A stretch of 27,743 nt of DNA from a virus. Taxonomy: Duplodnaviria > Heunggongvirae > Uroviricota > Caudoviricetes. Each line of letters starts with the position of its first letter. The first letter of the stretch is position 1. The notes under the pieces are model-generated. The model saw only the letters and a list, made by a program, of their open reading frames with translations. It ran no database searches and was not told the DNA's origin. Positions 1-16,290 of the stretch are shown piece by piece. The stretch is from positions 1-27,743 of the IMG/VR virus record IMGVR_UViG_3300021426_000080. One strand, given 5' to 3'. The position numbers and the translations under genes are program-made.

Positions 1-20
1 ACACGACGCTCTTCCGATCT
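1..20 (+). other. Illumina TruSeq adapter remnant (sequencing artefact)
   Basis: ACACGACGCTCTTCCGATCT is the 3' end of the TruSeq Read 1 primer/adapter sequence. Confidence 0.97.
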
Positions 21-45
21 CCTAAAAAATTCTCCGGAGGAGTTA

Positions 46-221
46 TTTTTAGATGCTTTTTACAGGGGCATGGGTTTCTTTTCTTTCATGTTATTCACTC
101 CACCTCCTTTACCACTGATTTTTTCAGCTGTTTTCCGTTCTCCTTTCAAGAGTTCCATGGTTTTATTTTTCGGAGTCTCCGTCCAAGACTCCCCCATGCC
201 TCTTTAAAAGGTATCTAGAAA
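46..221 (+). ncRNA. Candidate structured non-coding RNA with a 29-bp closing stem
   Basis: 46-74 pairs with 193-221: 24 Watson-Crick pairs, 4 G.U pairs and 1 mismatch. Internal hairpin GGAGTCT(172-178)/AGACTCC(186-192). The interior is pyrimidine-rich. Confidence 0.55.
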
Positions 222-278
222 TTGCTAAAACTAAATAATAACCAAACAAAACTATACAAGAAATGGAGGAAACTGGCT

Positions 279-635
279 GTGGGACGCCAAAAACTAGGTA
301 AAACTACTCCAACAACGCCGATGTCTCCTCCTGGGCGTACACCTGAGGCAAGAGAGAATCAGCTTATATCATTGGCATACGATCTTGCCGAATCAAGACT
401 GCGCGAAGGAACCGCCACTTCAGCTGAAGTGGTTCATTTTTTAAAACTTGGATCTTTGAAGGAAAAGCAGGAACTTGAGCTTACGAAGAAAAAGATGGAG
501 CTTATGACCGCTAAAACCGAAGCGTTACAATCTGCTAAACGAGTGGAAGAACTTTATGGCGCAGCGATTATGGCCATGCGTCGATATTCTGGTGCCGGAA
601 TGGAGATAGACGATGATGAGGAATACTACGAATGA
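279..635 (+). CDS. Conserved phage protein, candidate small terminase subunit
   Basis: GTG start at 279, 8 nt after GGAGGA (the ORF track start at 222 lacks an RBS). Helical protein (RENQLISLAYDLAESRLREGTATS); first gene at the left end, ATGA-coupled to the HNH gene. The TerS role is positional inference only. Confidence 0.5.
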   Translation: MGRQKLGKTTPTTPMSPPGRTPEARENQLISLAYDLAESRLREGTATSAEVVHFLKLGSLKEKQELELTKKKMELMTAKTEALQSAKRVEELYGAAIMAMRRYSGAGMEIDDDEEYYE

Positions 636-1060
636 ACCCAGTCATTAGAACCTACACAGAATTAATCCAACTTCCAGACTTCATTTCCCGTTATGAGTAT
701 TTACGTCTCGGCGGTAAAGTCGGAGAAGATACTTTTGGCTTCGATCGATGGCTCAATCAAGACTTCTATACTTCAAAGGAATGGCGAAAGTTTAGAAGAG
801 AAATAATCTCACGAGATCTCGGATGTGATCTTGCCTGCAAAGATCGACCGTTCCTGCAAGGTGAGACGGTGATTATTCATCATATAAATCCAATCGGTAA
901 AGGCGATATTTTAAATCATACTGAGTTCCTTATGGATCCTGAGTATGTGATTGCTACATCAAGTAATACACACAATGCGATTCATTATGGTGATCGGTCA
1001 TTACTTAAGTCTTTCGATCCAGTGCTTCGTCTACCAAATGATCAATGCCCTTGGAGATAA
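632..1060 (+). CDS. HNH endonuclease (packaging-associated type)
   Basis: RD.GC..AC motif, then IIHHINPI and NTHNAIHYG; lies in the packaging module like the HK97 gp74-type HNH. Confidence 0.85.
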   Translation: MNPVIRTYTELIQLPDFISRYEYLRLGGKVGEDTFGFDRWLNQDFYTSKEWRKFRREIISRDLGCDLACKDRPFLQGETVIIHHINPIGKGDILNHTEFLMDPEYVIATSSNTHNAIHYGDRSLLKSFDPVLRLPNDQCPWR

Positions 1061-6019: not shown

Positions 6020-7792
6020 ATGGCGTTATCCAATACGGCGGTTCCGACCTATTACGGACAGTTTCGGGACGCTGTATTGAGAGGCGAAATCCCGATCTGC
6101 AGATGGATCGAAATGGAAATGAACCGCATTGACAGATTGATCGCTAATCCAAGGTATTATTATGACGATGCGGTTGTTGAAGGATTTATCGATTACTGCA
6201 ACTCTGAATTGACGCTTACTGATGGCAGCGATCTACATTTGCTCGATACATTTAAGCTTTGGGCGGAAGAAGTATTCGGATGGTATTACTTTGATACTCG
6301 AAGTGTATACGTTCCGAATGAAGACGGGCACGGCGGTTATTATAAGAATGTCCGTTATAAAAATCGTCTTACGAAGAAGCAGTTTCTAATTGTTGGACGA
6401 GGCGCTGCAAAGTCGATGTATGCCTCTGCAATTCAAAGTTATTTCCTAACGGTTGATGCATCGACTACGCATCAGATTACAACGGCTCCGACAATGAAGC
6501 AGGCGGAAGAAGTTCTAAGTCCTATTAAAACTTCAATTGTTCGAGCCAGAGGTCCACTGTTTCAATTTCTAACCGAAGGATCACTTCAGAACACAACTGG
6601 ATCAAAAGCGAATCGTGTAAAACTTGCTTCCACGAAAAAAGGCATTGAAGATTTTCTTACGAATTCTCTTCTTGAAATCAGGCCTTTTAGCATCGATAAA
6701 CTTCAGGGGCTTCGCTGTAAGTGTGCAAGCGTTGACGAATGGCTTTCCGGTGATATTCGAGAAGATCCGATTACCGCTATTGAGCAGGGATGCGCTAAAG
6801 GCGGCATAGATGATTACTTGATTATCGCCACAAGTTCTGAGGGAACTGTTCGAAACGGATCCGGAGACTCTATCAAAATGCAGCTTATGAAGATTCTTCG
6901 AGGCGAGTTTGATGACGATGAGACCGGAGAAGCGTTCGATGACGTGTCTATTTGGTATTATCAGCTTGATGATATTCATGAAGTTGGTGATCCAAGAATG
7001 TGGATTAAAGCGAATCCAAATCTTGGGCATACTGTTACTTACTCGGCGTATCAGAAAGATGTAGCTAAAGCTGAGAATTTTCCAGATCAGAGAAACGAAA
7101 TTCTTGCTAAGCGATTTAATCTTCCTATGGAAGGATTCACATATTTCTTTACATATGAAGAAACACTTCCGCACAGGAAGCGAAACTTCTGGGGTTTGCC
7201 ATGTGCCATTGGCGCGGATCTTTCCCAGGGAGATGACTTCTGTGCATTTACATTTCTTTTTCCGACCCGCGACGGAAAATTCGGAGTCAAAGTTCGAAGT
7301 TATATTACCTCCAAGACAATGTCGGAGCTTCCTTTGGCTATGCATACAAAGTATGAGGATTTTATCAAAGAGGGAAGTTTGATCGTACTTGACGGCGTCG
7401 TGCTCGATATGATGCTCGTATATGATGACTTGGATCAGTTCATTATCGATAATGAATATGATGTTCGTTGCTTTGGGTTCGACCCGTATAACGCAAAAGA
7501 ATTTGTTGAGCGATGGGAAACTGAGAATGGTCCGTTCGGAATTGAAAAAGTAATTCAGGGTGCTAAGACAGAATCTGTTCCTCTCGGAGAGCTTAAGCAT
7601 TACGCAAACGAACGAATGCTCTTATTCGATCAGGAGCTTATGTCTTTCTGTATGGGTAACTGCATTACGATCGAGGATACGAATGGAAATCGTAAGCTTC
7701 TTAAGAAACGAAGAGAGCAAAAGATCGATAACGTGTCTGCAATGATGGACGCATATATTGCATATAAGCATAATAAGGATGCGTTTGAGTAA
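6020..7792 (+). CDS. terL: Terminase large subunit
   Basis: Walker A-like LIVGRGAAKS, Walker B-like ASVDEW, IKANPNLG, nuclease GADLSQGDDF, FGFDPYNA and KIDNVSAMMDA. Confidence 0.95.
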   Translation: MALSNTAVPTYYGQFRDAVLRGEIPICRWIEMEMNRIDRLIANPRYYYDDAVVEGFIDYCNSELTLTDGSDLHLLDTFKLWAEEVFGWYYFDTRSVYVPNEDGHGGYYKNVRYKNRLTKKQFLIVGRGAAKSMYASAIQSYFLTVDASTTHQITTAPTMKQAEEVLSPIKTSIVRARGPLFQFLTEGSLQNTTGSKANRVKLASTKKGIEDFLTNSLLEIRPFSIDKLQGLRCKCASVDEWLSGDIREDPITAIEQGCAKGGIDDYLIIATSSEGTVRNGSGDSIKMQLMKILRGEFDDDETGEAFDDVSIWYYQLDDIHEVGDPRMWIKANPNLGHTVTYSAYQKDVAKAENFPDQRNEILAKRFNLPMEGFTYFFTYEETLPHRKRNFWGLPCAIGADLSQGDDFCAFTFLFPTRDGKFGVKVRSYITSKTMSELPLAMHTKYEDFIKEGSLIVLDGVVLDMMLVYDDLDQFIIDNEYDVRCFGFDPYNAKEFVERWETENGPFGIEKVIQGAKTESVPLGELKHYANERMLLFDQELMSFCMGNCITIEDTNGNRKLLKKRREQKIDNVSAMMDAYIAYKHNKDAFE

Positions 7793-11148: not shown

Positions 11149-12438
11149 ATGCCAACATTTATGGAAAGGCTCCAGCATGGCTGGAATGCCTTCATCAATA
11201 ATAAAGATCCGACCGTTACACAGCCGGTATATTCCTACGGTAATTATTCATACCGACAGGATCGGAATCGGATTCGAATTGGAAATGAACGTACGATCAT
11301 TAACTCGATCTACAATCGTATTGCTACTGATTGCTCCTCGATTGATATTAGACACATCAAGACAGATAGCAATGGGAGATTTTCCGATGTTATAGATTCC
11401 GGTTTGAATTCGATATTCAGTCTCGAGGCGAATATTGACCAGGAATCCAGAGCATTCGTTCGTGATATTGTGCAATCGATGCTGGATGAGGGCGTCATTG
11501 CATGTGTTCCAGTTGATACGACAACGAATCCGTATAAAGGCGGATCGTATGATATTAACACAATGCGAACCGGCAAGATTACAAAATGGATGCCGAGGCA
11601 CGTAACGATCGAATTATACAATGACCGGAATGGTCAGAGACAGGAAGTAACTCTTCCAAAAGAAATGGTAGCCATCGTGGAGAATCCGTTCTATTCGGTT
11701 ATGAATGAGCCAAACTCCACCATGCAGAGGTTAATTCGGAAACTGCGGCTCCTTGACGACGTTGATGAGCAGAGCAGTGCTGGAAAACTTGACCTCATTA
11801 TACAGCTTCCGTACGTAATTAAAACGGAGGCACGCCGGGCGCAGGCAGAACAGCGTCGAAAAGACATCGAGATGCAATTAGCCGGTTCCAAGTATGGTAT
11901 TGCGTATACCGACGGAACTGAGCGAGTGATTCAATTAAACCGTTCGTTGGACAACAATTTAATGAAGCAGGTCGAATACCTGACTGAGACACTAATGGGC
12001 CAGCTCGGGATTACGAACGAGATCTTAAATGGTACAGCCAATGAGCAGACGATGATGAATTATTACAATCGCATTGTCGAACCGATTCTTTCTGCAATAA
12101 CCGGCGAATTTAACCGGAAGTTCTTAACAAAGACTGCAAGAACAAAAGGGCAGACTTTCATGTTCTTCCGAGATCCCTTTAAGCTGGTACCGGTGTCTAG
12201 TATTGCCGATATCGCTGACAAATTCACACGTAACGAGATTCTCTCCTCGAATGAGGTCCGCGGCTTGATTGGCTTTAAACCGTCCAAAGATCCGAAAGCT
12301 GATGAATTGAGGAATAAGAATCTTAACCAGTCGTCCAACAATCAGGAAGTTTCTCCGGATGTAACTCCGGAAGGTAATGCTGATGTGGGCGACGATTCTG
12401 TTTTTAAGGAGCAAATTCAAAATGGCAAACAAGTATGA
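11149..12438 (+). CDS. Portal protein
   Basis: 429 aa between TerL and the protease; SIYNRIATD, NPFYSVMNEPNS, GKLDLIIQLPY and NEVRGLIGFKP are typical portal segments; AGGAGG RBS. Confidence 0.92.
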   Translation: MPTFMERLQHGWNAFINNKDPTVTQPVYSYGNYSYRQDRNRIRIGNERTIINSIYNRIATDCSSIDIRHIKTDSNGRFSDVIDSGLNSIFSLEANIDQESRAFVRDIVQSMLDEGVIACVPVDTTTNPYKGGSYDINTMRTGKITKWMPRHVTIELYNDRNGQRQEVTLPKEMVAIVENPFYSVMNEPNSTMQRLIRKLRLLDDVDEQSSAGKLDLIIQLPYVIKTEARRAQAEQRRKDIEMQLAGSKYGIAYTDGTERVIQLNRSLDNNLMKQVEYLTETLMGQLGITNEILNGTANEQTMMNYYNRIVEPILSAITGEFNRKFLTKTARTKGQTFMFFRDPFKLVPVSSIADIADKFTRNEILSSNEVRGLIGFKPSKDPKADELRNKNLNQSSNNQEVSPDVTPEGNADVGDDSVFKEQIQNGKQV

Positions 12439-15809: not shown

Positions 15810-15831
15810 ATATTTGAAAGGAGAACAGAAA

Positions 15832-16290
15832 ATGTACGCAAAGAAAGTAACCTATAAAGGATTTGACGGACATGATGTGGAAGAAGTTGTTCGTTTTAAT
15901 TTGACGAAGGCCGAGGTTCTTAATCTTGACCTTAAGTATGAAGATTACGGCGGTCTTATGGGCTATTACCGTAAAATGATTACGGATATTAAAGAGGGCG
16001 ACGCCAGTTGGAAGCCTTATGTTAGTTTCCTTCAGTCAGTTCTTCTTTCCGCGTATGGCCAGAAGACTGAAGACGGTCGCTTTATTAAAAAGAAAAATGG
16101 CGTTCCGCTTAGCGAAGAGTTTGAGACTTCGGAGGCGTACGCTGCGGTGCTGATGCCACTTCTTACGGAGGATGGGCTTTCCGAGCTCGAACCGATGATG
16201 CTTGGAATTTTCCCTGATATGGACGAGGCACAGTATGAGAAAGGAAAAGAACAGGTGAAGGCTGATATTGGCCTGTCGCTTGTTGAGTAA
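15832..16290 (+). CDS. Tail assembly chaperone
   Basis: ATG at 15832 after AAAGGAG (the track start at 15766 lies before the terminator); VTYKGFDG..RFNLTKAE..AYGQKTEDGRFIK..FETSEAY; between MTP and TMP. Confidence 0.75.
   Translation: MYAKKVTYKGFDGHDVEEVVRFNLTKAEVLNLDLKYEDYGGLMGYYRKMITDIKEGDASWKPYVSFLQSVLLSAYGQKTEDGRFIKKKNGVPLSEEFETSEAYAAVLMPLLTEDGLSELEPMMLGIFPDMDEAQYEKGKEQVKADIGLSLVE

Follow-up and report, generated by a model that had tools for sequence, protein, structure and literature searches.

The c4 antisense RNA of phages P1 and P7 (immI operon; Rfam family C4) and the leader RNAs of P4 CI and N15 CB fold within a leader, expose loops complementary to a downstream ribosome-binding site (RBS) and are processed out of the transcript. 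In RNase III stalks, such as the stems of pre-16S and pre-23S rRNA, the intervening sequences of 23S rRNA, the processing hairpins of T7 and lambda and the Correia hairpins, a near-perfect duplex of more than 2 helical turns joins distant flanks of a polycistronic transcript. At the DNA level, the terminase-binding sites of cos phages, exemplified by lambda cosB, usually sit near the cut site. Here, we compare with these systems an element at positions 46-221 of a tailed phage from IMG/VR (record IMGVR_UViG_3300021426_000080; 94,846 bp, hereafter G000), of which the first 27.7 kb (27,743 nt) are referred to as the window. The source is a rumen/gut phage. The element consists of a long helix that closes over a pyrimidine-rich loop carrying an anti-Shine-Dalgarno (anti-SD) motif and, judging from sequence comparison, probably represents an RNA control element, so far undescribed, that heads the DNA-packaging genes.

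Results

A long helix in the window and across divergent relatives

In the window, 46-74 and 193-221 pair over 29 positions: 24 are Watson-Crick pairs and 4 are G.U on the + strand, which leaves a single C/U mismatch. Rereading of the sequence thus agrees with an earlier note on this DNA, which had proposed a structured RNA here, and the mismatch is a C-G pair in the sister contigs L004, L005 and L007 (L-numbers denote related loci or contigs). The RNA fold of 46-221 has an energy of -53.3 kcal/mol (z = -6.8), equalled by 0 of 200 shuffles. Other details of the same description hold as well: the enclosed segment is pyrimidine-rich, and both the motif TCTCCTTT (139-146) and a 7-bp hairpin at 172-192 are present. 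Among the sister contigs, this small hairpin has one compensatory change and, in addition, two G.U intermediates, with U-A replaced by C-G and G-C by G.U in L005, and U-A by U.G in L004.

A protein-anchored scan of IMG/VR yielded more than 560 loci with a homologue of gene 1, the first gene downstream of the element, and at every locus the stretch between the genome end and this gene was scanned by script for long-range stems. A gapless stem of 19-39 bp, enclosing 36-142 nt, was found in 36 of the 38 sequence clusters, scoring at least 10 standard deviations above shuffles in 34 of them. The arm sequences are almost wholly different between lineages, yet complementary. MAFFT aligned only the loop motif of 20 divergent elements and left the arms staggered; therefore, covariation across the family was counted per sequence by script, and pair counts were made on one alignable clade of 9 sequences (alignment A3). 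For this clade, RNAalifold returned exactly the 25-bp closing helix. Both sides had changed in 16 of its 25 pairs, and 89% of the cells were paired, versus 37-55% when the partners were slid; none of 500 shuffles came up to the figures of the real alignment. The helix postulated in the earlier note is thus conserved in homologues and supported by covariation.

The stem is present in cultured phages infecting hosts of two phyla: Faecalibacterium phage FP_oengus (23 bp), Arthrobacter phages Gordon and Tokki (35-38 bp), Microbacterium phage Damascus (33 bp), Bifidobacterium phage BitterVaud1 (37 bp) and Lactococcus phage 1706 (34 bp). These carriers belong to a supercluster of Actinobacteria and Firmicutes phages described in a study that makes no mention of the element (bioRxiv 10.1101/842583). 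The element is inherited within this siphophage supercluster, which joins the Actinobacteria phages with the group of Lactococcus 1706 and Faecalibacterium FP_oengus. A nucleotide search of phage records recovered no relative of the region. Neither did the region correspond to a described RNA family, in line with the novelty that had been suggested: in Rfam 15, positions 1-1500 of the window gave only chance hits at E <= 10, none of them spanning the helix as a unit, and 20 relatives gave 0 hits at the gathering score.

Wobble pairs point to the + strand

To distinguish the strands, stems were re-scored under a scheme giving G.T and A.C equal weight, which kept the search from favoring either. 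The ratio of G.T to A.C on the + strand was 147:26 among 49 distinct stems and 95:20 among cluster representatives. In 30 lineages G.U outnumbered A.C, with the reverse in 2 (p = 2.5e-7), and the wobbles are distributed along the whole stem and in both arms. Mutational strand bias was considered as a source of this excess and rejected, since the skews at four-fold sites of the genome (GC 0.03, TA 0.21) are too small, predicting at most an approximately 1.5-fold bias. The + strand also folds better than its complement in 38 of 43 elements (-54.6 versus -45.0 kcal/mol). Given that G.U greatly exceeds A.C on the + strand, pairing is selected in a single-stranded molecule of that strand, which would be RNA or, less simply, + strand DNA. 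Together with the covariation, this bias favors an RNA helix over a DNA inverted repeat, as had been argued from the window's own four G.U pairs.

An anti-SD motif is the constant part of the loop

Within the alignment of the 20 divergent elements, CTCCTTT(C) is the sole near-invariant block, and the motif occurs in 41 of 43 distinct loops. It is predicted to be unpaired (mean P of 0.74 versus a loop mean of 0.53), with accessibility above the loop average in 37 of 43 elements. Cultured phages carry it too, CTCCTTTCAAGAG being shared with Gordon and Damascus and CTCCTTTCAAGAA occurring in Tokki. The loop sequence CUCCUUUC equals the tail at the 3' end of 16S rRNA in Gram-positive bacteria and is therefore complementary to a strong RBS of such bacteria. 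The earlier note had likewise drawn attention to exposed anti-SD motifs; their predicted unpaired state stands, and the copy conserved family-wide is that at 140-147, whereas the copy it had stressed (101-110) is kept only in near relatives. In one further relative, L008, a motif resembling CACCTCCTTT lies elsewhere in the loop.

The + strand of the 94.8-kb genome contains 2 copies of CTCCTTTC versus 25 of its complement, GAAAGGAG. Similarly, in the genomes of L034, L038 and L026 the loop holds the single opposite-strand copy of GAAAGGAGAATAAA, the common RBS word of each phage. The match between the loop and the common RBS of each phage is real, but it does not separate a cis-acting, a trans-acting or a relic role.

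The element lies close to the left cohesive end and precedes a start codon

The base homologous to window position 21 is the first base of more than 20 independent contigs of IMG/VR, which begin with a CCTAAAAAATTCTCCGGAGG-type sequence. The same holds for three curated genomes, those of Streptomyces phage RosaAsantewaa, Microbacterium phage Damascus and Arthrobacter phage Gordon. These shared starts identify base 21 as the true left cohesive end. For Gordon, 9-base 3' cohesive ends have been published (PMC5513430). The placement of the element at the genome end in the earlier note therefore needs adjustment: it does lie near the left cohesive end, but the packaged genome begins at 21, and bases 1-20 are sequencing adapter. 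Shorter adapter remnants precede the same phage base in the contigs behind L012, L041 and L057. Positions 21-144 recur at the right end of the 94.8-kb record, indicating that the assembly is cos-joined; the element is therefore internal in replicating DNA, between a block containing a YonO-like RNA polymerase gene and gene 1. In the joined form, base 21 is preceded, in this order, by a 922-aa YonO-like 'RdRP' gene with a C-terminal helix-turn-helix, a 79-aa gene (PHROG 4303), a GC-rich hairpin and CTGAATCGCCGGCCT.

The element is always on the coding strand, and the next start codon, with a strong SD, follows approximately 10-85 nt past the 3' arm. Since a start codon is always this near, a leader fits better than the free-standing phage small RNA of the earlier note, which is not indicated: a scan of 1-300 and of the right end revealed no promoter-like or terminator-like site belonging to the element. 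An intrinsic terminator was rejected, there being none in the same scan, a loop of 118 nt and no T-run after 221. The members agree in that the element is on the coding strand, heads the packaging block and is soon followed by a strong SD and its start codon. The precise gene that follows differs. In Lactococcus phage 1706, the element lies at the left end before orf1, while the homologue of gene 1 is orf4. Rhodococcus phage ReqiPoco6 (L094 579-640) has no long stem; it carries a 15-bp hairpin, TTCCTCC:AAGGAGGAA, at the RBS of gp010, its gene 1 homologue.

Genes and sequence features around the element

The features of the window are collected in Table 1. Gene orientation is nearly uniform, with 109 genes on the + strand versus 11 short, probably spurious, open reading frames (ORFs), and from the element onward approximately 40 kb of late genes run in one direction. 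A block with the RNA polymerase gene directly upstream of the element is likewise found in FP_oengus; the same layout is probable for BitterVaud1, in which that place is taken by a large gene lacking annotation.

Table 1. Positions of the element, its parts and the neighboring features in the window.
Positions	Strand	Feature	Basis
1-20	.	Illumina TruSeq adapter remnant, non-phage	Sequence ACACGACGCTCTTCCGATCT, reverse complement of read-through adapter
21-45	+	Left cohesive-end core; base 21 is the first packaged base	CTCCGGAG palindrome (31-38) between A-run and T-run
46-74	+	5' arm of closing helix, extendable to 41-74	Sequence, fold, alignment A3 (columns 1-25 pairing with 180-204)
75-192	+	Pyrimidine-rich loop, 118 nt	74% C+T
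101-110	+	Second anti-SD-like motif CACCTCCTTT, lineage-specific	Kept in L004-L007
137-152	+	Family-conserved loop motif GTTCTCCTTTCAAGAG, core CTCCTTTC at 140-147	Reverse complement of the phage's usual RBS TTGAAAGGAGAAC
172-192	+	7-bp hairpin in loop, GGAGTCT/AGACTCC (172-178/186-192)	Sequence and fold
193-221	+	3' arm of closing helix, extendable to 226	Sequence, fold, alignment A3
222-278	+	A-rich spacer with gene 1 SD GGAGGAA (266-272)	Sequence
279-635	+	Gene 1, 118 aa, GTG start, PHROG 4259	PHROG match, E = 1e-36
632-1060	+	HNH endonuclease	PHROG 4321 match, E = 8e-52; annotated HNH beside gene 1 homologue in actinophages
6020-7792	+	Large terminase	
11149-12438	+	Portal gene	

Gene 1 is a small-terminase candidate by position only. 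Its product had no match in sequence searches of Pfam, NCBIfam and PDB, and its AlphaFold model, a two-helix hairpin, had none in Foldseek. Mean column identity is 66% over 29 homologues, the proteins of Actinobacteria and Firmicutes phages being 50-60% identical to each other, with a basic N-tail and an acidic C-tail that ends in Tyr. The HNH endonuclease encoded next to it usually accompanies cos packaging in this group of phages.

Several further observations concern the termini and the signals of translation. The right-end cos core (G000 94,660-94,722, equivalent to L002 1438-1500) consists of a GC hairpin, GGGAGGGGGT..ACCCCCTCCC, followed by CTGAATCGCCGGCCT; the right ends of RosaAsantewaa and Damascus have the same hairpin plus an ATCGCC(C/G)GCCT-type layout as in G000, so that this layout is kept from Streptomyces and Microbacterium phages to the rumen phage. 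The 3' overhang is probably formed by the last 9 bases of the right end. In Arthrobacter phage Gordon (L090 1-398), approximately 400 nt of non-coding DNA separate the left end from the element. Two flavors of translation start coexist in G000, TTGAAAGGAGAA-N5-8-ATG mostly at non-late genes and GGAGG-AAATTCAAA-ATG(GAA) approximately 10 times in the late region. At some genes (G000 ~47,650 and ~50,850; window ~15,800), a local CTC(C/T)TTT..AAAGGAG hairpin covers the gene's own SD, a sequence pattern suggesting that anti-SD masking may be used elsewhere in this phage. Finally, several contigs of IMG/VR have adapter joined directly to their physical left end, which makes such adapter useful in practice for recognizing true termini in metagenomic phage contigs; together with the many contigs that share a start base, the adapter at 1-20 defines the physical end of hundreds of uncultivated gut and rumen phages.

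Discussion

A proposed leader RNA acting in cis

Building on the structure, strand and motif conservation described above, we infer how the element may be transcribed, cleaved and paired. The reading that we favor, tentatively and as falling somewhat short of an even chance, is that of a sense-strand leader RNA that heads the packaging/late block and acts in cis through pairing of its anti-SD with an RBS, its duplex likely being an RNase III site. A transcript would cross cos from the RNA polymerase gene block at the right end; the long duplex would serve as a probable entry site for RNase III, by which the transcript would be processed or stabilized; and the exposed anti-SD would pair with the RBS of the next gene, thereby gating its translation. 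The duplex, 23-39 bp with 0-3 mismatches, is long enough for RNase III, which requires approximately 20 bp or more without large bulges, and nearly every member has 6-11 contiguous bases complementary to the SD of the next gene. Gating in cis is favored because an anti-SD that is exposed tens of nucleotides ahead of a strong SD, both being in one RNA, would be expected to pair with that SD. We also count for a leader the plain anti-SD:SD hairpin that precedes the homologous gene in ReqiPoco6.

Several results weigh against this reading. The loop motif does not covary with the translation initiation region (TIR) of the next gene, the longest complementary run averaging 7.6 nt for an element's own pair and 7.5 nt for crossed pairs (p = 0.35). 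Loop-to-TIR duplex energies are significant relative to shuffled loops in only about a third of the lineages, and in the window the energy is no better than that of shuffled loops. The gene 1 SD of the window, GGAGGAA, allows only approximately 5-9 bp. The motif stays constant while the SD of the next gene varies, and the rare variants of the motif (L058, L065 and L080) are not accompanied by a compensating change in the SD. The partial conservation of the arms (TAGAT..TTTAAAG..CTTATAGG) would also suit a sequence-specific protein. Furthermore, the target cannot be gene 1 specifically, because the element of phage 1706 precedes orf1.

A possible trans-acting RNA

The constancy of the motif beside a variable SD would be accommodated by a trans-acting anti-RBS RNA, whose loop, cut at the helix from the cos-crossing transcript, would pair with GAAAGGAGA-type sites of other phage or host mRNAs and silence one class of genes late in infection. 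We regard this as unlikely, though less so than the readings that follow. Over 12-14 nt, the loop is perfectly complementary to TTGAAAGGAGAAC, the RBS of at least 12 genes, and it is complementary to the TIR at 77,595 over 26 of 27 positions (E = 3e-7) and to that at 15,832 over 18 of 19; the sister contigs retain such a complementary site, and AAAGGAGA-type sites occur at 30 of 101 non-late versus 2 of 41 late candidate starts. A long stem flanking an RNA also resembles the RNase III stalks that release pre-rRNA, which counts in its favor. On the other hand, the element has neither a promoter nor a terminator of its own, and a generic anti-SD would matter only if very abundant. The extended complementarity is confined to the close kin of the window, a 94.6-kb relative (L022) having only a 14-nt antisense match, and where the sister contigs vary, the base has been exchanged without compensation.

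Of these two TIRs, that at window 15814-15832 precedes a 152-aa gene located after the major tail protein gene. That at G000 77569-77595 precedes a gene of 340 aa that has a hydrophobic segment at its N-terminus and matches no PHROG. The base that differs among the sister contigs is swapped between the loop and the complementary TIR site.

A bolder version, which we consider improbable, would have a large group of Firmicutes and Actinobacteria phages make, from the cos-crossing transcript, an RNA that mimics the anti-SD tail and is freed at the helix. By competing for one class of RBS, or by titrating a factor that binds the 16S tail, it would reprogram translation at the onset of packaging. 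A still less likely variant of the same idea is an RNA cofactor of cos packaging.

A possible site in DNA

The excess of wobble pairs, considered alone, would also be compatible with a hairpin in single-stranded + DNA during replication or packaging, given that such DNA tolerates G.T, and the location of the element invites comparison with a cosB-like site for the terminase/HNH machinery: in most members it lies 25-120 bp from the cut site, and in phage 1706 it is at the left end. In addition, the arms share some sequence, and the well-conserved gene 1 protein could recognize a conserved motif. Nevertheless, we judge a DNA-level element to be distinctly unlikely. Damascus carries the same cos core at its ends, followed by a block of five genes (endolysin and membrane proteins), and only past this lysis cassette, 2.1 kb from cos, comes the element, directly before the homologue of gene 1. 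Conversely, Streptomyces phages RosaAsantewaa and HazuAndZazu keep the cos core, gene 1 and HNH but have no such stem. A site bound at cos is disfavored by these two cases, the Damascus spacing and the Streptomyces relatives that share the cos and lack the element. Moreover, the spacing between the arms varies four-fold (36-142 bp), complementarity extends over the entire stem, and a 5:1 bias of G.T over A.C is unexpected for sites in duplex DNA, in which cruciform extrusion would be unfavorable with such large spacers.

Other possibilities

Another RNA function at the head of the operon, whether antitermination of the put/EAR type, a stop or processing signal read by the YonO-like polymerase of the phage, titration of a protein through mimicry of the 16S tail or a role as RNA cofactor in packaging, seems very unlikely to us. 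The element does open a run of late genes that spans approximately 40 kb in one direction and, in the joined genome, comes directly after the RNA polymerase gene block, and its motif is identical to the universal 16S tail and constant across phyla. However, Rfam contained no match to pRNA, put-like or other families, and no U-tract follows the helix.

A selfish inverted repeat of the Correia/ERIC type, that is, an element like a miniature inverted-repeat transposable element (MITE) without phage function, would agree in size, since MITEs have terminal inverted repeats of approximately 30 bp around approximately 100 bp, but is hardly plausible: the element is single-copy in the 94.8-kb genome apart from the assembly overlap, its place at the head of the packaging block and its orientation are kept across phages of two phyla, its loop motif is conserved and its wobble bias is strand-specific. 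Least plausible of all is that the motif serves as the RBS of a minus-strand micropeptide, the alternative raised in the earlier note, or as a STAB-SD on a minus-strand RNA, for although the window has an SD-like AAAGGAGG followed by GTG/ATG and a frame of 9-12 aa, approximately 28 of 45 relatives have no ATG, GTG or TTG 3-12 nt past the conserved minus-strand motif, the frames that exist (1-45 aa) are unrelated, the conserved copy in the window has no following start, the helix is weaker on the minus strand and essentially all genes are on the + strand.

If the leader reading is correct, the element represents an undescribed, widespread phage RNA motif with unusually clear covariation and, in its invariant copy of the 16S anti-SD, a built-in clue to its role; it would add RNA control directed at the RBS, or mimicry of the rRNA tail, to the regulation of phage late genes. 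The mechanism is directly testable, because 1706, Gordon, Damascus and FP_oengus are cultured, easily handled carriers.

Comparison with known systems

Among systems related to packaging, the resemblance to phi29 pRNA (RF00044) is restricted to a length of approximately 120-175 nt, a position near the left end and a helix formed by the 5' and 3' ends. Unlike the pRNA, the element has no Rfam match, and these phages package from cos with terminase and HNH; indeed, the genome combines cos ends with HNH, TerL and portal genes and does not conform to the phi29 type, in which replication is protein-primed and both cos and a small terminase are lacking. With a lambda-type cosB, the element shares, in most members, a location past the cos cut and ahead of the first packaging gene, but it differs in having no fixed position relative to cos (as in Damascus), in its absence from Scapunavirus with the same cos, in its variable spacing and in its wobble bias. 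The staphylococcal phage RNA that activates the cyclic oligonucleotide-based antiphage signaling system (CBASS), termed cabRNA, is likewise a structured phage RNA from the packaging gene region (PMC10686824), but its source is the interior of the terminase genes, activation of CBASS is its defining property, and no sequence or structural link joins it to the element. A catalogue of more than 10,000 candidate viral structured RNAs may contain the motif, although its text holds no description of it (PMC10690425).

Closer parallels are found among RNAs that act near their own genes. Leaders that sequester an SD, including RNA thermometers, the expression platforms of riboswitches and local hairpins, likewise place a CUCCUU-type sequence upstream of a strong SD in the same RNA; in our element, by contrast, the anti-SD does not covary with the SD and, instead of forming a hairpin with it, lies in the loop of a long helix apart from the SD; pairing between the two would thus be a pseudoknot-like contact. 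The RNase III stalks have the same duplex plan around a variable insert, whereas partial sequence conservation along the arms and a conserved motif in the loop are not typical traits of RNase III sites. Like the C4-type RNAs, the element would be a leader-type phage RNA, and its exposed loop is complementary to sequences of ribosome-binding sites. The element differs from them in that it has no Rfam C4 hit and combines a single long helix with a large loop and a generic anti-SD, and in its setting, a packaging operon beside cos in lytic phages of Gram-positive hosts. As to complementarity with an RBS downstream on the same transcript, a property of C4 RNAs, every member has 6-11 nt that could pair with the SD of its next gene, though no more than with the SDs of other members. 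By analogy, the c4-type leader antisense RNAs of P1, generic anti-SD leaders and RNase III stalks would be its nearest functional counterparts and, as far as sequence comparison can indicate, the element is best filed alongside them as a new, widespread leader RNA motif of testable mechanism.
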